A stretch of 55,310 nt of DNA, taken from the IMG/VR virus record IMGVR_UViG_3300023097_000001, positions 1-55,310 of that record, one strand, 5' to 3'. The notes below the pieces were generated by a model. That model saw only the letters and a program-made list of their open reading frames with translations, was not told the origin of the DNA and searched no databases. The translations under genes and the position numbers were made by a program. The first letter of the stretch is position 1. Every line of letters begins with the position of its first letter. This document shows positions 5,527 to 52,382 of the stretch, piece after piece. This DNA comes from a virus. Its lineage: Duplodnaviria; Caudoviricetes.

Positions 5527-6024
5527 ATGACGACCACCGAAATCAAGCTGACCCCGGCCATGACCACGGCTCTCAAGTTGGCCGAAAAGATCGGCGACAA
5601 CGTGTACCTCCCGGACGGTACCAAGGCGCAGACCATCAAGGGACTCGTGTCCCGAGGTCTGTCGAACGAGTTGGGCGTGCTGACCCCGGAAGGCGCGGAA
5701 GCGTCGTTCCAGCTGGGTGCCGACGTCTCGATCGAGAGCGTTCAGGTCCAGGAGGAGCCCTTGGCTGACTGGGAGCGTGAGCTGCTGGGGACTCCGGAGT
5801 CCATCGCTACCCCGATCGCGGACGAGGACGCGAAGCCCCAGCCCCCGCAGGACAAGCTCACCAAGGAACTCGTCAAGATGCTGGACACCCCGACCCCCGT
5901 CCAGAACCGTGCGGACCGTAGGTTCGCCAAGTTCTCCCTGCGAGGGATGATGGCTCGTCGACAGGAGCGCAAGCGCGTGAAGGAGATCAAGAAGTACGGC
6001 ACCCCGAACAAGGTCGCCGCGTGA
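5527..6024 (+). CDS. hypothetical protein
   Basis: GAGGAG RBS; basic C-terminus. Confidence 0.75.
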   Translation: MTTTEIKLTPAMTTALKLAEKIGDNVYLPDGTKAQTIKGLVSRGLSNELGVLTPEGAEASFQLGADVSIESVQVQEEPLADWERELLGTPESIATPIADEDAKPQPPQDKLTKELVKMLDTPTPVQNRADRRFAKFSLRGMMARRQERKRVKEIKKYGTPNKVAA

Positions 6025-7090
6025 ACTACTACTTCCTGAGTGATGAGCCGCTGACCAAGGCAGAAATCCTGATCACCTTCGGGGTATTGATCTTGACAGT
6101 TCTGCTGCTGGGAAGAATCTTCAGAAAGAAGTGATCATGTCACCCAACGAAGGTGTTCTAGGTCTGTTCGCGCTGTGCATTGGCCTGTTCATACTGGCCT
6201 ACGTCGTCAGCGGGCAGTGGGAAGACGAGTAAAGGCATCATGAGAAGGCATCAGGTAACCCCTGATCACATGTTCCAGCTTGCGGACCGGGGGGTTGACC
6301 CCCGGTCCGAGTTGGACCTGATCGGCAACATTGGTGCGTATGTCGATGACGCGCACGAGTTCTCTCGTGCCTATGCCAACTACGCACAGACCGTGTTCGA
6401 CCTCTGTACGGGCTCTCCAGAGCCGGTGAGCAGGTTCCTCCAGAGGTGGCCGCACAGAAAGGTATTGCTATAGAAATCGCGATAGAACTTCTTAGGACCC
6501 TGTCCGTCATATTTGGCTTGATGCCATTGTGGGCATGGATGTTGTTGGTGTTCGGGGTCATCATCTTGTCGGAACTAGCGGATTACCTAAGGAATAGGTG
6601 ATGCAATGTGAGACCTGAAATCATGATAGCAATCGGCGCGTGCTTCACACTCGGACTGATCTTCGGAAAGAAGAACCCGGTTGTGGCAGGCGCGTGGTTT
6701 GCTGTCGCGTTCATCCTGACCATGTGGGCACCTGGAGGCTTGCTGTCATGACCACCGGATTAGCCAACGGGATAGGCTTCGGTCTGGCCGTGTTCGCAAG
6801 CGCAGTCATGTTCAGCAAGAGGCCGACCAACGCGATTCCGATCTACTTGATTGCGTTGGTGTTCATCGCTTGGGGGTGGGGTATCAGTGGCACCTAGGAA
6901 GCCTGCACCCAAGGCAAAGGGCAAGCTCCCACGTCATGACCGAAGCAAGCAGCTTCCGGTCCGCACGGGTTGGGGCTTGTGGAAGACGCTAGCTGTGGCG
7001 GTTGCGGTTGGTGTGGCTGTGTGGATCGTGCATGGTCCGGACATCCCACCCACGGTACCGGCACCTCCTACGATTGTTGAGCCGAGGTAA
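6021..7090 (+). other. run of small ORFs, mostly 1-2 TM membrane microproteins
   Basis: Hand translation gives MNYYFLSDEP...ILITFGVLILTVLLLGRIFRKK, MSPNEGVLGLFALCIGLFILAYVV..., MRRHQVTPDH..., IEIAIELL..., MRPEIMIAIG..., MTTGLANG... and MAPRKPAP...; the ORFs are closely packed or overlapping. Confidence 0.6.
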
Positions 7091-7364
7091 GGCATGTGAA
7101 GTGCAGGGCTGTGCGTTTGATGTCCCTCGGGGACGGTAATGGCTGGACCACGACCGCGTGTGTCCGGCATGGTTGGTGGCACCTGAGGCATGTGGATGTC
7201 TTCGGGTTTCACTGGTATGGGAAGGTAGGGAATTAGATGGGTGGCAAGTCGCACGAAGAGCAGCAGGCCGAGTTCGAAGAGCGAGTGCGAATCCAGACGG
7301 AAAAGGCAGCAGAGGCCGCGAGGGTGGCAGAGGCAGCCGAGAAGATCGCGAACGAGGGCAACTG

Positions 7365-7726: not shown

Positions 7727-7799
7727 GTCACCATAGCTCAAAGGGACAGAGCAACCGCCTCCTAAGCGGAAGATCCGAGTTCGAGTCTCGGTGGTGACA
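7727..7799 (+). tRNA. tRNA-Arg(CCU)
   Basis: Full cloverleaf: GTCACCA acceptor, anticodon loop CTCCTAA, T-loop TTCGAGT; no encoded CCA. Confidence 0.92.
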
Positions 7800-7837
7800 C
7801 TCAAAAAATGAGAACACTAGACCCTAAGGGGAACACA

Positions 7838-14639: not shown

Positions 14640-15746
14640 ATGAGGGTCGATGATGTTTTCGACCCGGCATTGTATGTCGAGATGGAAGGGGCGGGGATGA
14701 TTCGCACTCAGATTCACCCCTCCCTTCCCTTGGCTATCGCCACCTACACCAAGGACTGTGTTGTTGCACGGTGCTGGAATGAGGTGACGTTGCAGTGCCG
14801 TGGTTTGATTTACAACTACGAGACGCAAGAACTTTTGGCTCGTCCCTTTCCGAAGTTCTTCAACCTGGGTGAACCACTTGCCCGTGAGGACTACGAGGCT
14901 GATGTAGAAGTCAGTGACAAACTGGATGGCTCGTTGGGCATCGGTTACGTCTGGGAAGGAAAGCTCTACATTGCCACCAAGGGCAGCTTTGCCAGTGAAC
15001 AAGCTGTCGAAGCCAACAAGATCCTCCAGGAGACCCACCCCAACTGGCTTCCGCCTGAAGGTCTAACCCCGTTGTTCGAGATCATTTACCCCGAGAACCG
15101 TATCGTGCTGGACTATGGTCAATCACGAGAGCTTCGGTTTCTTGAGGCTATTGACATAGAAACGGGAAAGACTTTCGACTGGGGTTCAGACGATAAGGGT
15201 CGTGATAGTGTATGGATTTCGTGGCCCGGACGAACCGTCGGGTTCACGGGGTACCAAACCCTACGACAAGCCGTATCTGCTCTCCCTCGGGAGAACGCAG
15301 AGGGTTTCGTGGTGCGGTACTTGGACACGGATGAGAGAATCAAGATCAAGCAGCAAGACTATCTGGACAAGCACAAGATGGTGTTCTTGCTGTCTCAGAA
15401 GACCATCTGGGAATCACTGAAGAACGGTAGGTTCCACGAGTACAAGTCGGGGATGCCCGATGAGTTCCATGATTGGATGGATTCCGAGGCTTCAAAATTT
15501 ACTGCAAAATTTGAAGACCACCTTTCGATTATCGATGATTGCGTAAATTCCCCTGACCTGAGCTATCTCATTGAGTGTGCCCAGAACGGTGAGCGAGAAG
15601 CACGTCTGATGATCGAAGAACTCATCAGTGACCTGCCTAGGTGGGTGTGGGGTGCCATCTGGTGTGTGGTGGATGGCTACGACTACACCAAGATTATCTA
15701 CAAGCAGTTCGAACCCAAGGGACAAACAAAGGTGGCCAAGCCATGA
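14640..15746 (+). CDS. RNA ligase, T4 Rnl1 family
   Basis: CRGLI, RPFPKFFN, motif I KLDGS, FEII-x-PENRIV and EGFVV. Confidence 0.92.
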   Translation: MRVDDVFDPALYVEMEGAGMIRTQIHPSLPLAIATYTKDCVVARCWNEVTLQCRGLIYNYETQELLARPFPKFFNLGEPLAREDYEADVEVSDKLDGSLGIGYVWEGKLYIATKGSFASEQAVEANKILQETHPNWLPPEGLTPLFEIIYPENRIVLDYGQSRELRFLEAIDIETGKTFDWGSDDKGRDSVWISWPGRTVGFTGYQTLRQAVSALPRENAEGFVVRYLDTDERIKIKQQDYLDKHKMVFLLSQKTIWESLKNGRFHEYKSGMPDEFHDWMDSEASKFTAKFEDHLSIIDDCVNSPDLSYLIECAQNGEREARLMIEELISDLPRWVWGAIWCVVDGYDYTKIIYKQFEPKGQTKVAKP

Positions 15747-16559: not shown

Positions 16560-17489
16560 GTGAGTGCACCAGTGCTGTACTTCACGGTCGGCCTGCCGGG
16601 GTCAGGGAAGACCCACTACGCCAAGTGGTTGCGGACTCTTCACTCCCCCGGAAAGGTGATGACCATTTCCCGTGATGGTCTGCGGGATGAGTACTTCGGT
16701 ACTCGTGATGGATTGATCGGTGACCAGGAGGTGATGATCACTTCTCTCCAACACGCACAGATCCGCAGGGCACTGGAGCGTGGCATTACCGTGATCGTGC
16801 ACGACTGCAATCTTCGGATGCAATACCGCAAGCAGCTTGCACAGATCGCGGAAGACATGGGATTCAAGTGGGTTCAGGTAGACCTGACTCACATCTCTCT
16901 GGAGACGTGCCTCGAAAGGAATGCCAAGCGGGGAAACCCTGTTCCCGAAGAGGTCATCCGGAACATGTTCGATCGTTACATCAAGGCGAACAAGGGTGAG
17001 GCGATGGCACTGCCTCAGCCCAAGGCGAAGGCGGCTCTTCCGAAGCGTGAGATGTACGTTCCGGACACGTCCAAGCCCAAGGCTGTCATCGTGGACATCG
17101 ATGGGACTGTGGCTCTCCACGAGGGTGTGAGGGGTGTCTACGACACGTCCAAGTACCACCTGGACAAGCCCAACCTTCCCATCATCGACATGGTGAGGCA
17201 CGAGGCCTACGACTTGGGGAACAAGATCTTGTTCACCTCGGGTCGTCACGTGAACTTCTTTGGTGTGACCGAAGATTGGTTGTACCAGGAAGTGAAGGTC
17301 CCCATCGAGGGGCAGTTCATGCGTGAGAACCACGGTGTCAGTGACGACATCGAGAAGTTGGATCTCTTCGACAAGTACATCAGGCACAACTACAATGTGG
17401 TTCGTGCATACGACGACCGAAACCGAGTGGTCAAGGCCTGGCGTTCAATCGGCCTGACTTGCTTGCAGGTAGCCGAAGGCGACTTCTGA
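16560..17489 (+). CDS. pnk: polynucleotide 5'-kinase / 3'-phosphatase (T4 PseT-like)
   Basis: P-loop GLPGSGKT, RD-x-LR, HAD motif DIDGT, TSGR and DDR-x2-VV. Confidence 0.93.
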   Translation: MSAPVLYFTVGLPGSGKTHYAKWLRTLHSPGKVMTISRDGLRDEYFGTRDGLIGDQEVMITSLQHAQIRRALERGITVIVHDCNLRMQYRKQLAQIAEDMGFKWVQVDLTHISLETCLERNAKRGNPVPEEVIRNMFDRYIKANKGEAMALPQPKAKAALPKREMYVPDTSKPKAVIVDIDGTVALHEGVRGVYDTSKYHLDKPNLPIIDMVRHEAYDLGNKILFTSGRHVNFFGVTEDWLYQEVKVPIEGQFMRENHGVSDDIEKLDLFDKYIRHNYNVVRAYDDRNRVVKAWRSIGLTCLQVAEGDF

Positions 17490-18063
17490 TGCTGATGGTC
17501 GCGGGGTGGATCTTCTTGTTTGCTGCGGCTTACAAGTTGTTCACCCACAGAAATACGCGTGACCTTTGGGTTGCGCTGGTGTTGGCTTTGTTCTCGGTAT
17601 CAATGCTTTTCTACAACTTCAACTAAAGGAGCACACAATGCACCAGGAAAGTGGAATCGTCGCTGTCATCCTGTTCAGCATCGGCCTCGCACTTCTGGCT
17701 ACGAAGGCCAAGGCTGTTGCCTACACCTTCATGGCTGCGGGTGCTGTGATGGTGGTTGCAGGAGTCAGCGGTTGAGGACTCTCATGATGGCGGTGTCCCT
17801 GGGGCTGATCGTTGGTTCGGTCTGGGCTTTCACCCAGACCAACCCAGCCTTGGGGCTACTGCTTGCCTCCCTGTCGATGGCTGTCACCCTGACCGCACGT
17901 TCTCGAAGGCGGGACAATGAATAAAGGTTGGGCTGCTGGTGGATTCTTCTTCGCGATGGTCGCCACGGCCTGTTTCGTAGCAAGACTTACCCCGTTCGCA
18001 GTCGGGTGTGGGATCATCGCACTCGTCATGTTCACCGAAGCTTTTGTGAATGAGGACAAATGA
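17489..18063 (+). other. four tandem ~45-aa two-TM microproteins
   Basis: MLMVAGWIF..., MHQESGIVAV..., MMAVSLGLIV... and MNKGWAAGGFFF...; each has two hydrophobic helices. Confidence 0.6.
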
Positions 18064-21480: not shown

Positions 21481-21587
21481 CGTAGGGGGGGGGTGAGTGA
21501 ATGCCTAGGCAGTGTATCTTCGGTGGTGAGTGTATCGACGGGTGCGAGGTTGGCACCGAGGTAGACGAAGACACCGAAGAGTAAGCA

Positions 21588-21639
21588 GGGCGAAACGCCG
21601 GGAGGCGTCCACGGGTTGGTCCCGTGCCGATGAGCCCAA
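21588..21639 (+). ncRNA. type II hammerhead-ribozyme-like element (U4C core variant)
   Basis: GGGC-GAAA-CGCC[GGGA]GGCG-TC-CACGGG[TTGGT]CCCGTG-CCGATGA-GCCC: three stems and all core residues except U4. Confidence 0.75.
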
Positions 21640-21852
21640 GGAGGCAGCATGTTCGTCTTCATTTGTGCAGGGTGTCCACACGTTGACGACTGTGTCAACG
21701 GCAAGGAAGCTTGTATCAACCCTGATCCGGAGAAGAAGGAGGAAGAGTGAACTGCCCCAAGGGCGGTGAATGTCCTGATCCCGAAGCGTGCCAGCAAGGC
21801 GCACCATGTGAAGTAGTTGTCTACTGGACCGAAGTAATGAAGGAGCGACAGA

Positions 21853-22065
21853 ATGACGATCGATGATGGTAACGAGGCTCTGTCTGTCTTCTCTTCGTGG
21901 TTCGAAGAGGATCACCCTGCGGGATACCTCACTCGTGGTGAGGGGTACAACCACTCCTGGCAGTTCACCGTAGCCAGGGGTGTGGGAATACTGCGTGTGG
22001 TGATGGAAGATGTCAACACGCTGGACACTGCGGAGTTCGAATGGGAACTGATCCCCCGATCATAG
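21853..22065 (+). CDS. hypothetical protein
   Basis: GAAGGAG RBS. Confidence 0.6.
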   Translation: MTIDDGNEALSVFSSWFEEDHPAGYLTRGEGYNHSWQFTVARGVGILRVVMEDVNTLDTAEFEWELIPRS

Positions 22066-28538: not shown

Positions 28539-29279
28539 ATGACGAACGCAGTGCATGAGGCTTGGGAACTCCTTTCCAATGTCTCGGATGGTGTCTGGGA
28601 GACCCAGTCTCCGCAGTGGCAGGTCGACACCGAAGCGTGGCGGGACCGCTACATGGGTAAGTCGAAGCACATGGGTGAGGTCGGGTTCATCAAGTGGCCG
28701 TCGACTCCGCGCTTCCACAAGTACCTGACCATTGCCGAGAAGATCAATGGCACGAACGCGGCCATTCGTATCCTGGACGGTAAGGTCACGACCCAGTCCC
28801 GCAAGCGGATCATCACGCCTGACGATGACAACTTCGGCTTCGCCAGGTGGGCGTACGACAACGCTGGTGCTCTTACGGATGTTCTGGGCTACGGTGTCCA
28901 CTTCGGTGAGTGGTTCGGTGAGGGCATCCAGAAGAACCCTCTGGGTATCGAGGGCAAGCGCTTCGCGCACTTCTCCCCGTGGAAGTTCAACGACGCAGAG
29001 AAGGAGCGAATCGAGAACTCTGGTCTTGTGGAGTTCGTTCCGATCCTCTTCGAGGGTCAGGCTGACTTCATGACGATTCCCACTGTGCTCACGAACCTGA
29101 GCCAGTTTGGTAGTCAGGTTTCTGGAGCAGCACGGTATGTCCCCGAATCTTTTGATGGTCCGGCGGGCGACTTCACTGTCGCCAACAAGGCTGAGGGCAT
29201 CATCGTGTGGCAGAAGGAGACTCAGCAGAAGTACAAGATCCTGCTGGAGAACGACTCCATCCACAAGGGGCAGCTGTGA
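28539..29279 (+). CDS. RNA ligase, Rnl2-like nucleotidyltransferase domain
   Basis: EKINGTN, QSR-x-R, DNFGFA-x-W, FGEWFG-x-GIQ, VP-x-L and EGIIV. Confidence 0.85.
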   Translation: MTNAVHEAWELLSNVSDGVWETQSPQWQVDTEAWRDRYMGKSKHMGEVGFIKWPSTPRFHKYLTIAEKINGTNAAIRILDGKVTTQSRKRIITPDDDNFGFARWAYDNAGALTDVLGYGVHFGEWFGEGIQKNPLGIEGKRFAHFSPWKFNDAEKERIENSGLVEFVPILFEGQADFMTIPTVLTNLSQFGSQVSGAARYVPESFDGPAGDFTVANKAEGIIVWQKETQQKYKILLENDSIHKGQL

Positions 29280-30311: not shown

Positions 30312-30774
30312 GCCAACCGTGCTGATAATCCTGGGCATCCTGATTTTGGTGCTGGTACTGAGCGCGGTGAACTAGCATGGTTCGAAACGTAGTGGGTGAC
30401 TTCAACACCTCAGGCCAGGAGAAGTGCTGGCACTGTGGAAGTTACTTCCCCGAAGCGTGGATTCACACCCACGCCGACAAGTGCGACAAGAACCCGGCCA
30501 ATCAGGAAGACGAAGAATGATGAAGCACTTGTACGATTGCCCTGTTTGCGGGGCGTTCAAGGGTGTAGGAAAGTGTCCTAACGGGCATGGCACGAAGAAG
30601 TTCCGATGACACTGCTTGAGCTAGCAAGAGAGATCGCTGTGCTTCAAGCCAAGGCTAGGTGCGGTGATTCTGTCTACATGGATGGGTCACATAACCCAAC
30701 CTTCCGAGAGTCCAAGGAAGCTGGTTGGTTGGTGGACGCTTTTGCGGCGTCCCATCCCGAACTGAAGGAGGAAC

Positions 30775-31557: not shown

Positions 31558-31824
31558 ATGAAGAAGGCTCTGAGAGCGTCTCTGGCGCTCGTAATGGCTA
31601 TGACCCTAGTTGGGTGTGGCAGTGTGGGTTCTGAGCCCGCAGGGGCGTCCTCAGCCCCAGCAATCACTACTCTGGACACCCACGAGTTCTACATGGAAGA
31701 GTACGGACTGGTGAAGGTCCGAACCTACTGTCGTAATGGTGACTTCTTCGTCGCCAGTTTCAGCTACCGAGAAGGTGGCGTCCAGATCGAACCAGAACTG
31801 AAAGATAGGTGTGTAGGCAAGTGA
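31558..31824 (+). CDS. lipoprotein
   Basis: Lipobox LVGC after a signal peptide. Confidence 0.7.
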   Translation: MKKALRASLALVMAMTLVGCGSVGSEPAGASSAPAITTLDTHEFYMEEYGLVKVRTYCRNGDFFVASFSYREGGVQIEPELKDRCVGK

Positions 31825-33248
31825 GTTGGACCTGTTTTACGTGTGGATTCAGCGTTGACTGTGATGATGCCGAGCTGTTCGCACGAATTGTGGATTCCCA
31901 TATGTCCAGGGCTCATTAAGGAGATTTAGACAATGACATGGACTTGTGTATGTGGCTACAGCGTGACAAACGACAACACATCGGTTGTGGAGAAGGCAAT
32001 GGATGCACACGTGAGGACGTGCATCATGCTCCAGGCCTAAGGATGGTGACATGAGCCCGTGGCCTCAGCCCACTAAAGACGGGGCGATGTGTTCGATCTG
32101 TCTTTACTGGTTTCACATCGACCTACTAGCAACAGACCCAGAAGACAACAGGAAGACCGACACCTGTGTTGCTTGTTGGCACTGGGAACAAGAGGAAATG
32201 AGGAAGCGCAATGCCTGACAACACTTACACCTGGGTCGTCATGAGAGAAGGCAACCCAATCCCGGAGTTGGTGTTCCAGAAGAAGTACGACCTCAGGTCT
32301 TGGATCAATGGTCAGTCCGAACCCGAGACTGCCGATATCAGGATCTTCCGCTTCCCGCCTTACGGGCGGGTTGGTGGAACCGAGGTGTTCATCTCGGACA
32401 TCCTATCCAAGTGAGTGAATGGGTGTGTGACCGGTGCGGGGGCCGCGATGCGGCCTCCTGCCCGGAGACCTGTACCGGAAGAACATGGGGAGACAAATGA
32501 TTTCAAGTTGGTGTTACACGTGCGGTAAGATCAAGGGCACTGGAGGTTGTACGCATGGCTGAGAAGAGGCTCACCGAGACGGATATCGAAGACATCCAAG
32601 CGACCCTTGAGGGTCAGGACCTTGGTTTCATCATTGGGGAGGACTGATGACTGACCCGAACGGTAACCCGCTCACCAAGGAAGAGCAGGAGCAGATCCGA
32701 GAGGTCTTGGGTGACCAAGCCGACGACTACATTTGGGATGAGGACGACTGATGTCGTACCACACCGATGACTTGGAGTTCCTGGAACTCCTGGACGAGAT
32801 TGACCCCGTATGGCCCAGAACTGATGAGGACGAAGACTAGTAGTGTGTAGAGACTGCGAGCAACGCTCAGCAGATGAAACACTGGACCAGATATTCGACG
32901 AGTTGGAGGAAGAACATGGGTAAGGGCAAGGGAAACGGCGAAGGTGAGTTCTCCGATGAGGAGCTGGACCGACTTTACGACGAGATGATCGAAGCTGAGA
33001 ACAAGGACCCAGAAGAGGACGACTAATGCCGATGCACCCGTGCCCCGGTTGTAATGGATCGGGGCTCCAAGGTGACTACATCTGCTCTGACTGTGGTGGA
33101 GAACGGTACTTCTACTCTCCCTACAGCAAACCACCGGACACAGGAGACGATGACGATGATTGATCCAATCGACGAAGAGGATCGCGCAAGCGACCTGGAC
33201 CTTGACGACTACATTGACGTCCTGAACGGCGACTTCTACATCGACTAG
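31821..33248 (+). other. array of 13 closely packed micro-ORFs (21-67 aa), Zn-finger and hyperacidic
   Basis: Hand translation; start/stop overlaps or very short gaps throughout (see findings). Confidence 0.7.
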
Positions 33249-33259
33249 CACAAAACAAG

Positions 33260-33294
33260 AAAAGCCCCCACCTCATCGAGGTGGGGGCTTTTTT
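33260..33294. terminator. bidirectional intrinsic terminator between the convergent arms
   Basis: AAAAGCCCCCACCTC-ATC-GAGGTGGGGGCTTTTTT. Confidence 0.9.
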
Positions 33295-50924: not shown

Positions 50925-50959
50925 CTGTTCACAACTTTCTATAGCATGTCGAATAAAAG

Positions 50960-51031
50960 TCAGGATGGGTGGGATCGAACCACCGGCCCCGCGCTTCCAA
51001 AGCGCTCACTCTACCTCTGAGCTACACCCTG
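50960..51031 (-). tRNA. tRNA-Pro(UGG)
   Basis: Cloverleaf; anticodon loop TTTGGAA. Confidence 0.88.
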
Positions 51032-51045
51032 ATTGTCTAACAAAG

Positions 51046-51117
51046 AGCCGCTACTAGGACTTGAACCCAGAACCACCCGCTTACGAGGCGGGTGCTCTTC
51101 CATTGAGCTACAACGGC
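51046..51117 (-). tRNA. tRNA-Thr(CGU)
   Basis: Cloverleaf; loop CTCGTAA. Confidence 0.9.
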
Positions 51118-51121
51118 ATTG

Positions 51122-51193
51122 CGGGGCCACGAGGTCTCGAACCTCGGACAGCTCTTTTGGAGAGAGCCGTTTTGCCTACTAAACTATGTCCCC
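51122..51193 (-). tRNA. tRNA-Trp(CCA)
   Basis: Cloverleaf; loop CTCCAAA. Confidence 0.88.
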
Positions 51194-51246
51194 TTGACTA
51201 GCAGGCGCAGAAGAAGCGCCCACAGTCCTTACACAAAAACACCATG

Positions 51247-51317
51247 CTGCCTGCCCTGGATTCGAACCAAGAACAGATGGTTCAGAGCCACCCGTGTTGC
51301 CGTTACACCAACAGGCA
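51247..51317 (-). tRNA. tRNA-Gln(CUG)
   Basis: U1-A72, loop CTCTGAA, G73. Confidence 0.9.
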
Positions 51318-51369
51318 TTGTCCGTGCACCCTCTTACGCAGGCGTCCCCACTCGCGAATACACGGATTG

Positions 51370-51441
51370 TCATCCATCCAGGATTTGAACCTGGAACCTA
51401 GAGCTTAAGAGGCCCTTGCTCTACCCTTGAGCTAATGGACG
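51370..51441 (-). tRNA. tRNA-Lys(CUU)
   Basis: Cloverleaf; loop CTCTTAA. Confidence 0.9.
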
Positions 51442-51442
51442 G

Positions 51443-51515
51443 TCGCTCGTCCTGGAATCGAACCAGGGACCTTCTACTCATCAGGTAGACGCTCTTACCA
51501 CTGAGTTAACGAGCT
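51443..51515 (-). tRNA. tRNA-Ile(GAU), atypical G37
   Basis: Cloverleaf; loop CTGATGA; 1:72 mismatch. Confidence 0.82.
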
Positions 51516-51521
51516 ATACTT

Positions 51522-51608
51522 CTACACGCAGTGACAGTTCGTCAAAGAGTCACCCGTGTTCATCTTGCCCGTACCATGACAGTCCGGGCAGTTGTACTTT
51601 GGTTTCAT
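51522..51608 (-). CDS. DnaJ-type Zn-finger microprotein (28 aa)
   Basis: MKPKYNCPDCHGTGKMNTGDSLTNCHCV; AGGAG RBS. Confidence 0.65.
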   Translation of the reverse strand: MKPKYNCPDCHGTGKMNTGDSLTNCHCV

Positions 51609-51616
51609 CGGAACTC

Positions 51617-51739
51617 CTACTCAGTGACGGTTCCGCTCCCGTGACAGGTGGGACAGACGATCTCGGTCTGACTTCCATCTGGATTACGCTGGTAAACCGT
51701 CTTTTCACCCTTGCAGGTGTAGCACTCTACTGTTGCCAT
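51617..51739 (-). CDS. DnaJ-type Zn-finger microprotein (40 aa)
   Basis: MATVECYTCKGEK...VCPTCHGSGTVTE; GAGAGG RBS. Confidence 0.7.
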   Translation of the reverse strand: MATVECYTCKGEKTVYQRNPDGSQTEIVCPTCHGSGTVTE

Positions 51740-51760
51740 TCCAACCTCTCGTACGTGGTC

Positions 51761-51832
51761 GGTAAGGACGGGACTCGAACCCGCTAAAACCGGTTTCACA
51801 AACCGGTGCCTCGGCCACTTCGGCATCCTTCC
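51761..51832 (-). tRNA. tRNA-His(GUG)
   Basis: Loop TTGTGAA, C73; the encoded -1 base is A rather than G. Confidence 0.85.
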
Positions 51833-51834
51833 TG

Positions 51835-51906
51835 CTCCCACAACTGGATTCGAACCAGTAACCCGCGCCTTAACAGGGCGCTGCTCTGCCGTTGAGCTAT
51901 ACGGGA
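51835..51906 (-). tRNA. tRNA-Asn(GUU)
   Basis: Cloverleaf; loop CTGTTAA, G73. Confidence 0.92.
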
Positions 51907-51998
51907 ATAACGTGGCCACTCGATACACTCCATAGACCGGAGCATCGCTGGACCAACGGACAGTTCCTACATGCGTGAGTGTACTGTCAACTAAACTG

Positions 51999-52074
51999 TC
52001 GCTCCTGAGGGATTCGAACCCCCGCAAACCCAGGTTCGTAGCCTGGTGCTCTGTCCGGACTGAGCTAAGAAGCG
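51999..52074 (-). tRNA. tRNA-Arg(ACG)
   Basis: Cloverleaf; loop CTACGAA. Confidence 0.9.
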
Positions 52075-52077
52075 ATA

Positions 52078-52148
52078 TTACCCGCCAGGGAATCGAACCC
52101 TGATCTCCTGGGTGTAGGCCAGGAACTCTTCCTTTGAGCTAGCAGGCA
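52078..52148 (-). tRNA. tRNA-Val(UAC), atypical C33
   Basis: Stem CCTGG/CCAGG; loop CCTACAC. Confidence 0.82.
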
Positions 52149-52151
52149 AAG

Positions 52152-52225
52152 CCGAAACGCTTGGATTTGAACCAAGAACCCGTGGCTTTTCACGCCACTG
52201 CTCTTCCAAGTTGAGCTACGTCCCG
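52152..52225 (-). tRNA. tRNA-Phe(GAA), atypical G32
   Basis: Stem GTGGC/GCCAC; loop GTGAAAA. Confidence 0.85.
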
Positions 52226-52229
52226 TTGA

Positions 52230-52303
52230 TCCCAGTTCAAGGACTCGAACCTCGAACTCCCGAGTTACAGTCAGGCCGGTTGCCAATTACCATACAAACT
52301 GGG
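52230..52303 (-). tRNA. tRNA-Tyr(GUA), no long variable arm
   Basis: Loop CTGTAAC; C1-G72, A73; 4-nt variable loop. Confidence 0.78.
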
Positions 52304-52307
52304 ATAG

Positions 52308-52382
52308 TACCCCTCCCCAGATTCGAACTGGGAACCTTCCGGGTCTGAGCCGGACGCCTCTGCCAGGTTGGGCTAGAAGGGC
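52308..52382 (-). tRNA. tRNA-Leu(CAG), no long variable arm
   Basis: Loop CTCAGAC; A73; 5-nt variable loop. Confidence 0.82.

Follow-up and report, generated by a model that had tools for sequence, protein, structure and literature searches.

What does a phage encode in 1.4 kb of apparently empty sequence at the end of its replication operon? The question is raised by positions 31821–33248 of IMG/VR record IMGVR_UViG_3300023097_000001 (Duplodnaviria; Caudoviricetes), which represents an uncultivated soil phage. The record is complete, has direct terminal repeats, and spans 55,310 bp, all of which form the window analyzed here. The original prediction, made by a model from the letters and a list of open reading frames (ORFs), placed 13 back-to-back microprotein genes in this interval. 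All 13 ORFs are there, with the peptides that had been quoted and with in-frame starts and stops, and they tile the full 1428 nt as predicted: 9 of the 12 junctions are overlaps of 1–8 nt (ATGA, GTGA, and TGATG types), the other three are gaps of 2, 10, and 13 nt, and the reading frame changes at every junction between successive ORFs. The encoded peptides (Table 1) have a mean length of 36 residues and share the general class of phage proteins of less than 100 residues and unknown function, with 4 of the 13 shorter than 30 residues. On four independent lines of evidence, namely Shine-Dalgarno (SD) signals, codon usage, conservation, and substitution pattern, we consider the 13 ORFs very probably to be separate coding units.

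ORFs as short as these could be chance frames in non-coding DNA, or the real gene could be a 174-residue antisense ORF (32727–33251, − strand) that is open both here and in a related locus, L004. The near-zero codon scores of the Cys-rich ORFs are also what this explanation would lead one to expect. A shuffle test argues against it. When ATG or GTG starts, ORFs of 20–70 residues, gaps of up to 15 nt, and overlaps of up to 8 nt are allowed, a 13-ORF chain over all 1428 nt was reached in 0 of 300 dinucleotide shuffles (mean of 3.1, maximum of 8), and the longest chains in control sequence were 4 in 68 antisense windows of the same genome and 6 elsewhere on the sense strand. An SD core (GGAG, GAGG, or AGGA, 4–12 nt upstream of the start) is present at 11 of the 13 starts, compared with 181 of 1,282 (14%) other ATG or GTG triplets in the operon (p = 2.6e-8). 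At the two starts without an SD core, those of ORF1 and ORF5, the GTG is part of a GTGA stop-start overlap. With a codon model trained on 17 long genes, the called frame scores best or tied-best for 11 of the 13 ORFs. High positive scores are obtained for ORF8 and for ORFs 4, 7, 9, 11, and 13 (0.41, 0.68, 0.48, 0.81, and 0.73, respectively), and scores are near zero for the Cys-rich ORFs, as the rarity of Cys in the training set would lead one to expect. The antisense ORF itself is spurious and evolves neutrally, with a codon score of −0.06 and a ratio of nonsynonymous to synonymous substitution rates (dN/dS) of 0.92. In L004 it passes through the reverse complement of an inserted DUF3310-like gene, and it is an artefact of sense codons rich in Asp and Glu. 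Together with the third-position excess described below, these results make a chance or antisense origin hardly credible.

The comparative evidence comes from two closely related loci. L003 (the same sequence as L021 and L022) and L004 (97.7% identical to them) have an exonuclease 75–76% identical to that of the window, and in both loci 11 of the 13 ORFs have homologs, which keep the order of the window and are separate ORFs, each with its own stop. The original prediction had turned on the frames being preserved in related genomes, and that preservation is what we find. Over the 12 micro-ORFs that can be aligned, the pooled dN/dS is 0.20, compared with 0.19 for the neighboring exonuclease. 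The differences are distributed over the three codon positions as 84/65/162 (n = 311), with a third-position excess that is highly significant (chi-square p = 8.5e-12). For ORFs 2, 5, 6, 10, and 12, peptide identity is 76–91% while synonymous sites differ by 23–78%. Between L003 and L004, the micro-ORFs other than ORF5 contain 20 synonymous and 7 nonsynonymous changed codons. These substitution patterns show what appears to be purifying selection on each of the 13 peptides. Further metagenomic contigs matched to the array were only L004-like variants and recombinant fragments.

The same comparisons bear on the idea that the ORFs are fragments left by the decay of a larger gene, or of a few, or that a single protein is made by recoding across stops. 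ORF1 and ORF12 do show sub-threshold matches to DUF1059 and to the DnaJ Cys-rich domain, respectively, both of them longer domains, as such remains might. However, the frame changes at every junction, the stops and starts are kept as those of separate ORFs in L004, 11 of the 13 ORFs have their own SD, and selection is detected within each frame. We regard this origin as very improbable on the searches made, which did not extend to longer proteins, where fused forms might exist.

Table 1. Positions and main characteristics of the 13 array ORFs and of two flanking features
Feature	Coordinates	Strand	Length (residues)	Start	Characteristics
ORF1	31821–31919	+	32	GTG	Possible C2H(C/H) zinc knuckle (WTCxxCG...H); start overlaps upstream stop (GTGA)
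ORF2	31933–32040	+	35	ATG	WTCxCG...H...C mini-protein; GGAG 9 nt upstream
ORF3	32051–32218	+	55	ATG	CxxC-x21-CxxC, zinc-finger-like; unnamed family
ORF4	32211–32414	+	67	ATG	No Cys, near-neutral; single-gene cassette
ORF5	32411–32500	+	29	GTG	CxxC...C...C mini-protein; GTGA stop-start overlap
ORF6	32497–32562	+	21	ATG	CxxCGxxKGxGxCxHG, zinc-knuckle-like peptide; GGAG 4 nt upstream
ORF7	32555–32647	+	30	ATG	Net charge −7; GGAG 9 nt upstream
ORF8	32647–32751	+	34	ATG	Net charge −10, ends ...DDYIWDEDD; TGATG junction, GGAG 5 nt upstream
ORF9	32751–32840	+	29	ATG	Net charge −11; TGATG junction, GAGG 7 nt upstream
ORF10	32843–32923	+	26	GTG	CxxC, then acidic amphipathic stretch; net charge −8
ORF11	32916–33026	+	36	ATG	Net charge −11; GGAG 7 nt upstream
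ORF12	33026–33163	+	45	ATG	CPGCNGSG...CSDCGG zinc-finger-like head, poly-Asp tail
ORF13	33156–33248	+	30	ATG	Net charge −11; GGAG 9 nt upstream; last operon gene
Gene directly upstream of array	31558–31824	+	88		Lipoprotein-like signal peptide with Cys (LVGCGS)
Bidirectional intrinsic-terminator-like hairpin	33260–33292	both			15-pair stem, T runs on each strand

If the ORFs are genes, what kinds of peptide do they encode? The original prediction described a zinc-finger half followed by a hyperacidic half. The ORFs do split into Cys-rich and strongly acidic ones, and net charge ranges from −3 to +2 for ORFs 1–6 and from −7 to −11 for ORFs 7–13, the latter with an isoelectric point (pI) of 4.1. 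The division between the halves is less clean than described, as ORF4 has no Cys and is not very acidic, whereas ORF10 and ORF12, which sit in the acidic half, carry CxxC.

Judged by the patterns and conservation of their Cys and His residues, the peptides of the Cys-rich ORFs 1, 2, 3, 5, 6, and 12, and perhaps ORF10, are probably folds of 20–55 residues held together by one zinc site each. ORF1 and ORF2, rightly called paralogs in the original prediction, are 39% identical over 28 residues (E of 3e-5 within the window) and share the invariant pattern W-T-C-x(1,2)-C-G...D-x-H. ORF1 has a homolog in L004 (57% identity over 30 residues, E of 2.8e-10) with proportions of nonsynonymous and synonymous differences (pN and pS) of 0.35 and 0.75, respectively. 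ORF2 is 91% identical in L004 and L003, with a dN/dS of 0.16 and 4/1/8 differences by codon position. Like the small metal-binding proteins of Pfam DUF1059 (PF06348), ORF1 has a Cys pair and then a His, and it aligns to positions 11–37 of the 56 in that profile. Unlike members of that family, ORF1 falls short of the cut-off (16.1 versus 21.1 bits), ORF2 has no match at E ≤ 1, and both peptides are about half the family length.

ORF3 belongs to a widespread unnamed family. It is 85–87% identical in L003 and L004 (dN/dS of 0.10) and 64% identical in a third locus, L020. A profile search of 1.84 billion representatives returned 34 representative clusters at E ≤ 1e-3, three of them at E ≤ 1e-10. 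Family members are mostly 44–90 residues long. Ten were looked up, and every one derives from a metagenomic assembly, in five cases from a contig of 25–53 kb. In an alignment of 26 members, Cys14, Cys17, Cys39, and Cys42 are the only invariant columns. These members have no common family in Pfam or PHROG, each library giving one weak match to 1 of the 26. A word-index search (searches of this type left out the "longer" and "shorter" length ranges) returned only the window's own protein for ORF3, and its profile found no match among genome contigs. The AlphaFold 2 (AF2) model of ORF3, calculated without metal, has a predicted local distance difference test (pLDDT) score of 89 and consists of four short strands and a C-terminal helix. 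Foldseek gave no matches to this model at E ≤ 0.001, and the best hit of a second structure search (Hpy99I, Z of 4.1) is below the meaningful level. The weak structural rows are mostly zinc-finger domains.

One of these weak rows, the Bacillus subtilis sigma-G inhibitor CsfB (Z of 3.8, root-mean-square deviation of 4.0 over 46 residues, again below the meaningful level), is among the observations that could be cited for a rival proposal, in which the array encodes phage-internal regulators. Under this proposal, the zinc proteins would control phage expression or replication, and the acidic peptides would modulate them or phage DNA-binding proteins. Models for such regulators are the late activators Ogr of P2 and Com of Mu and small zinc-binding anti-sigma factors such as CsfB. 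Both the CxxC-x21-CxxC spacing of ORF3 and the position of the array, at the end of the replication operon where it converges on the late, structural operon, are consistent with this role. Core regulators are not expected to behave as cassettes, however, and yet four more distant loci, L005–L008, lack all 13 ORFs, and ORF3 is found elsewhere in L020. In addition, profile scans detected no helix-turn-helix or known regulator family, and none of the fold matches is significant. An internal regulatory role is quite unlikely on this evidence.

ORF5 and ORF6 are smaller still. ORF5 is 79–86% identical in L003 and L004, with a dN/dS of 0.31. At position 7212, L004 differs from L003 by a 1-nt indel close to the end of the ORF5 homolog, which as a result has 38 residues in L004 instead of 29 and overlaps the ORF6 homolog; this indel could be either a natural variant or an assembly error. 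ORF6 is 71% to 76% identical in L004 and L003 (E of 1e-9 to 2e-10), with 5/4/10 differences by codon position. It also has a paralog in the window at 30517–30609, just upstream of the exonuclease (pairwise E of 4e-5), and L003 and L004 carry a similar ORF6-like copy upstream of their exonuclease.

ORF12 is 84% identical in L003 and L004, with a dN/dS of 0.07 and 4/4/18 differences by codon position. It had been called DnaJ-like, a label that goes too far, as the resemblance is one of motif only. The Cys-rich domain of DnaJ has four CxxCxGxG repeats that form two zinc centers. ORF12 has one full repeat (CPGCNGSG) and one partial repeat (CSDCGG), but it has two motifs instead of four, no J domain, and a poly-Asp tail, and it is a stand-alone peptide of 45 residues. 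Its match to Pfam DnaJ_CXXCXGXG (PF00684; E of 0.0068) scores 17.1 bits against a gathering cut-off of 32.7. No protein in an index of 5.8 billion proteins shares three 5-residue words with ORF12, and a sequence search of the Protein Data Bank with the ORF3-family and ORF12 profiles gave no match at E < 0.09.

Many short Cys-containing peptides side by side could also be precursors of ribosomally synthesized and post-translationally modified peptides (RiPPs), with Cys-rich cores and acidic leaders. The peptides do not have a common leader, however, and no modifying enzyme, protease, or exporter was recognized in the flanks, where the genes are those of the exonuclease, a lipoprotein-like protein, a holin, and tail proteins. 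Only the Rv2179c-like exonuclease and an r1t-type holin have a Pfam name, and the other flanking ORFs scanned have no family. A RiPP origin is extremely improbable.

The acidic peptides of ORFs 7–11 and 13 have the combination of very low pI and small size by which DNA mimics and other acidic mimics are recognized; small acidic or inhibitor proteins of phages include Ocr, T7 Gp2, and T4 Stp (26 residues). Conservation among these peptides is uneven. ORF10, whose homologs in L004 and L003 start with ATG, is 85–88% identical in these loci (dN/dS of 0.13). In L004, identity is 66% for ORF8 (dN/dS of 0.15), 62% for ORF11 (dN/dS of 0.23), and 61% for ORF13 (E of 5.7e-9, dN/dS of 0.33). ORF9 has a borderline homolog in L004 (E of 0.001, 13 of 28 residues identical). 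ORF7 has no tblastn match in the relatives and the weakest comparative support of the 13; at its position, L004 has a 27-residue acidic ORF in which 7 of 25 aligned residues are identical. Most of the residues conserved in the acidic peptides are aromatic or aliphatic and are set amid Asp and Glu, for example YIW in ORF8, F..LD.L in ORF11, and DYIDVLNG.F in ORF13. A two-copy complex prediction for ORF11 gave a score of 0.02, which is evidence neither way.

Where does the acidity come from? The last codons of the preceding gene hold the SD and start of the next gene, and SD and start motifs read in frame give Asp and Glu, such that part of the hyperacidic tails can be attributed to a dual-coding constraint. 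A junction motif, GA(T/A)GAGGACGA, recurs at three gene ends, and the ORF8/9 and ORF11/12 junctions have a common 20-nt repeat with 85% identity. In ORFs 8, 9, 11, and 12, the acidic fraction is 0.67–0.83 in the last six residues and 0.10–0.33 in the body. The bodies of ORFs 7–11 and 13 are nevertheless still 29–42% acidic, and the body of ORF13 is the most acidic (0.42) even though no gene follows it. The dual-coding constraint explains part, not all, of the acidity.

This pattern has to be weighed against the proposal that the operon end is a tolerant place, a gene nursery, in which short ORFs arise and persist as harmless passengers and in which acidity and purine content reflect SD signals and unstructured mRNA for re-initiation. 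The + strand is indeed purine-rich at the array (GC skew of 0.14, AT skew of 0.16), the C-terminal residues are the most acidic, and ORF7 and ORF9 evolve fast. The repeating junction motifs fit as well, as do possible tandem duplicates. A few ORF pairs look like diverged duplicates in sequence, ORF1/2 and ORF10/11 (weak similarity, pairwise E of 5e-4) among them, whereas BLASTP gives no support for paralogy of ORF7 and ORF8. Gain and loss of cassettes at the site and the different contents of distant relatives, both described below, would also be expected of such a place. On the other side, a pooled dN/dS equal to that of a bona fide enzyme gene argues against harmless persistence for most of the 13, several of the tiniest peptides (ORFs 2, 5, 6, 10, and 12) keep their sequence while synonymous sites diverge, ORF13 has its acidic body without a downstream gene, and the ORF3 family is widespread. 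We therefore think this proposal, the main rival, unlikely as an account of the array.

Comparison with related loci shows array genes that appear to have been gained or lost as single cassettes at gene boundaries. ORF4 is absent from L003 and L004 through a clean indel of ~205 nt that has the ORF3 end precisely on one side and the ORF5 start, in its GTGA, on the other. A word-index search found three ORF4 homologs with 80–93% identity on other contigs, and a back-translated scan of viral contigs found no match to it. In a protein atlas, the ORF4 model has a pLDDT of 0.71 and no named relatives, and ORF4 and ORF12 fall there only among unnamed clusters scoring below 0.9. Relative to the window, L004 has extra genes, a 26-residue acidic ORF and a gene whose DUF3310 match (22.5 bits) is below the cut-off of 24. 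L005–L008, whose exonuclease is 59–65% identical to that of the window, have other acidic micro-ORFs (37–54 residues), Cys-rich micro-ORFs (24–28 residues), and a 76-residue ORF at the array site, as well as an ORF of ~140 residues that by eye resembles a deaminase. Two homologous micro-ORF pairs and the 76-residue pair can be compared between L006 and L007, and in these pN is well below pS. In L020, the ORF3 homolog follows the DNA polymerase gene and is itself followed by further Cys-rich micro-ORFs.

Short ORFs are not confined to this site. In a crude gene call of the window, the regions 6021–7090 and 17489–18063 contain runs of ORFs of 26–67 residues, each with one hydrophobic membrane-like segment, and further Cys-rich acidic micro-ORFs of 27–47 residues are found at 21501–21866 and 30377–30609. 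This distribution suggests that the 13-ORF array is an extreme case of a genome-wide micro-ORF habit rather than an isolated oddity.

The array is the last 1.4 kb of a DNA-replication and RNA-repair operon, as two operons meet at the hairpin that begins 12 nt past the ORF13 stop. The + strand genes span ~1 kb to 33.25 kb, and profile scans identify among them a family A DNA polymerase, a DnaB-like helicase, a polynucleotide kinase-phosphatase (PNKP), two RNA ligases, an RNase H-fold protein, and the Rv2179c-like exonuclease. The − strand encodes structural genes and the r1t-type holin and converges on the same point, such that the terminator-like hairpin closes both operons. Within the array there is no terminator-like site on the + strand, and one promoter-like site lies 1.5 kb upstream.

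How might such an array work? We hold, with modest confidence, that the best explanation as a whole is a real, co-expressed array whose peptides are accessory binders. The array would be co-transcribed with the replication operon on one transcript, and ribosomes would probably move from gene to gene by coupling or re-initiation, in which case all 13 peptides would be made together from that transcript. The zinc peptides could act as small protein- or nucleic acid-binding modules. The acidic peptides of ORFs 7–11 and 13 are probably short amphipathic segments that fold on a partner, and they might act by charge or by acidic-tail mimicry. During infection, the peptides may titrate or block nucleic acid-handling proteins of the host or of competing phages. 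That they are dispensable accessory binders or inhibitors is the likeliest role but a more tentative proposal, made by analogy, and the original prediction of a peptide-effector library of nucleic acid mimics and anti-defense inhibitors is plausible in the same sense.

The binder or inhibitor role is suggested by two precedents. The first is the ultra-small early genes of cluster A mycobacteriophages, for which Ko & Hatfull 2020 (PMC7474061) describe Hammer gp103 (26 residues) and LHTSCC gp56 (25 residues) as toxic to Mycobacterium smegmatis, and in which annotation depended entirely on a peptide that stays conserved between genomes while the DNA varies. The array resembles these genes in its scale of ~25 residues, in its actinophage setting among small non-structural genes, with a terminase closest to that phage group, and, as with genes of the Hammer gp103 type, in peptides that are conserved while the DNA varies (11 of 13 ORFs, pooled dN/dS of 0.20). 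It differs in that no sequence similarity was found to the ultra-small genes, tblastn of ORFs 2, 3, 8, and 12 against 50,697 phage records giving nothing significant, and in that its 13 genes form an uninterrupted run at the distal end of an operon, not downstream of an early promoter as in the cluster A genes described there. Small accessory genes, ultra-small ones among them, are established in the non-structural operons of actinophages (PMC7474061; review, PMC11323111).

The second precedent is T7 gp5.9. This small protein, with a pI of 4.0, is a DNA mimic that blocks RecBCD and forms a parallel coiled-coil dimer of ~49 ordered residues (PMC9836394). The acidic array peptides are likewise small, extremely acidic products of phage accessory genes (pI of 4.1 versus 4.0). 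Unlike gp5.9, they have 26–36 residues, a short hydrophobic pattern only, and no sequence similarity to it.

Several observations weigh against, or limit, the reading of the array as 13 co-expressed accessory binders. For the window's own gene set, the comparative evidence comes down to what is in essence a single sister lineage, given that L003, L021, and L022 share one sequence to which L004 is nearly identical, and ORF7 and ORF9 are poorly conserved even there. The codon score is slightly higher in the +1 frame for ORF10 and ORF12 and higher in an antisense frame for ORF5. The zinc sites are assigned from Cys and His patterns alone, and the AF2 model of ORF12 is poor (pLDDT of 64). The hydrophobic pattern of the acidic peptides extends, by eye, over 2–3 helical turns, much shorter than that of gp5.9, and much of their C-terminal acidity falls on embedded SD and start sequences, of which GAGGACGAC-TGATG is one example. 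None of the peptides scores above a curated threshold in Pfam or has a convincing E-value in PHROGs or PADLOC; in the PADLOC scan, which left out ORFs 1, 5, and 6, none of the other ten was significant, and the one weak row had an E of 0.018. Finally, no run on record as RNA contains the array stretch, which is evidence neither way; three runs labeled RNA-Seq contain small shares of it, all as contigs, and two of these are marked "probably DNA."

A bolder version of the accessory-binder explanation makes the operon end a cassette site dedicated to fast turnover, at which the phage lineage would assemble and shuffle minimal binding modules in combinatorial sets. The SD/stop-start junctions (GAGGACGAC-TRATG and similar) would then have two functions, as translation coupler and as microhomology for recombination, and some of the peptides, several in number, would specifically inhibit defense or DNA-repair proteins of the host. 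We consider this version rather doubtful as it stands. If it were true, the gene-expression signal and the gene-shuffling signal would be the same sequence, and the modules, a one-zinc knuckle and a single acidic amphipathic segment, would be near the lower size limit of functional protein.

Because ultra-small toxic genes have already been described for actinophages (PMC7474061), the array does not establish a new principle but adds an extreme and well-supported case. It stands out for its density and small gene size (13 genes in a row with a mean of 36 residues), for the strength of the comparative evidence, and for the widespread unnamed zinc-finger-like family. On comparative evidence alone, genes of mostly 21–36 codons are strung 13 in a row, each apparently under purifying selection. 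Routine gene calling seems to miss part of the array, as the index of 5.8 billion proteins holds no ORF12 relative although 84%-identical copies are present in four loci, and phage "dark matter" may thus exceed what protein catalogues suggest. The array also represents a compact set of candidate minimal zinc folds and acidic peptides that can be tested, including the ORF3 family, and if some of the peptides inhibit actinobacterial defense or repair proteins, they would be very small tools.

Judged from its sequence, the 55.3-kb genome that carries the array is complete and actinophage-like. The large terminase shares 64% identity with its counterpart in Rhodococcus phage RGL3 and 63% with those of cluster-A-type mycobacteriophages, and it has matches in 1,723 phage records, mostly from phages of actinobacteria. 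Searches of 50,697 phage records, in near or distant mode, gave no nucleotide match to the array region. A Nocardia genome (L041, 4001–4477) encodes an Rv2179c-like exonuclease with 46% identity to that of the window, which gives a weak hint that the phage host belongs to the Mycobacteriales.

The gene directly upstream of the array is 35% identical in the sister lineage, and its dN/dS of 0.52 is the highest of the neighborhood. At the other end, one metagenomic contig has the three loop bases of the terminator-like hairpin (33275–33277) as their reverse complement with both stems unchanged, which resembles a flipped loop. An Rfam scan of the window found tRNAs only, and nothing inside the array. 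There are 14 phage tRNA genes, 13 of them in one array at 50959–52382 (− strand) adjoining the structural operon, and tRNA-Arg(CCT) stands alone in the early region at 7727–7800 (+ strand). The T4 Rnl1-type RNA ligase, the PNKP, and the second RNA ligase are encoded at 14640–15746, 16560–17489, and 28539–29279, respectively; we take the set to resemble a tRNA-repair kit like that of T4 against anticodon nucleases.

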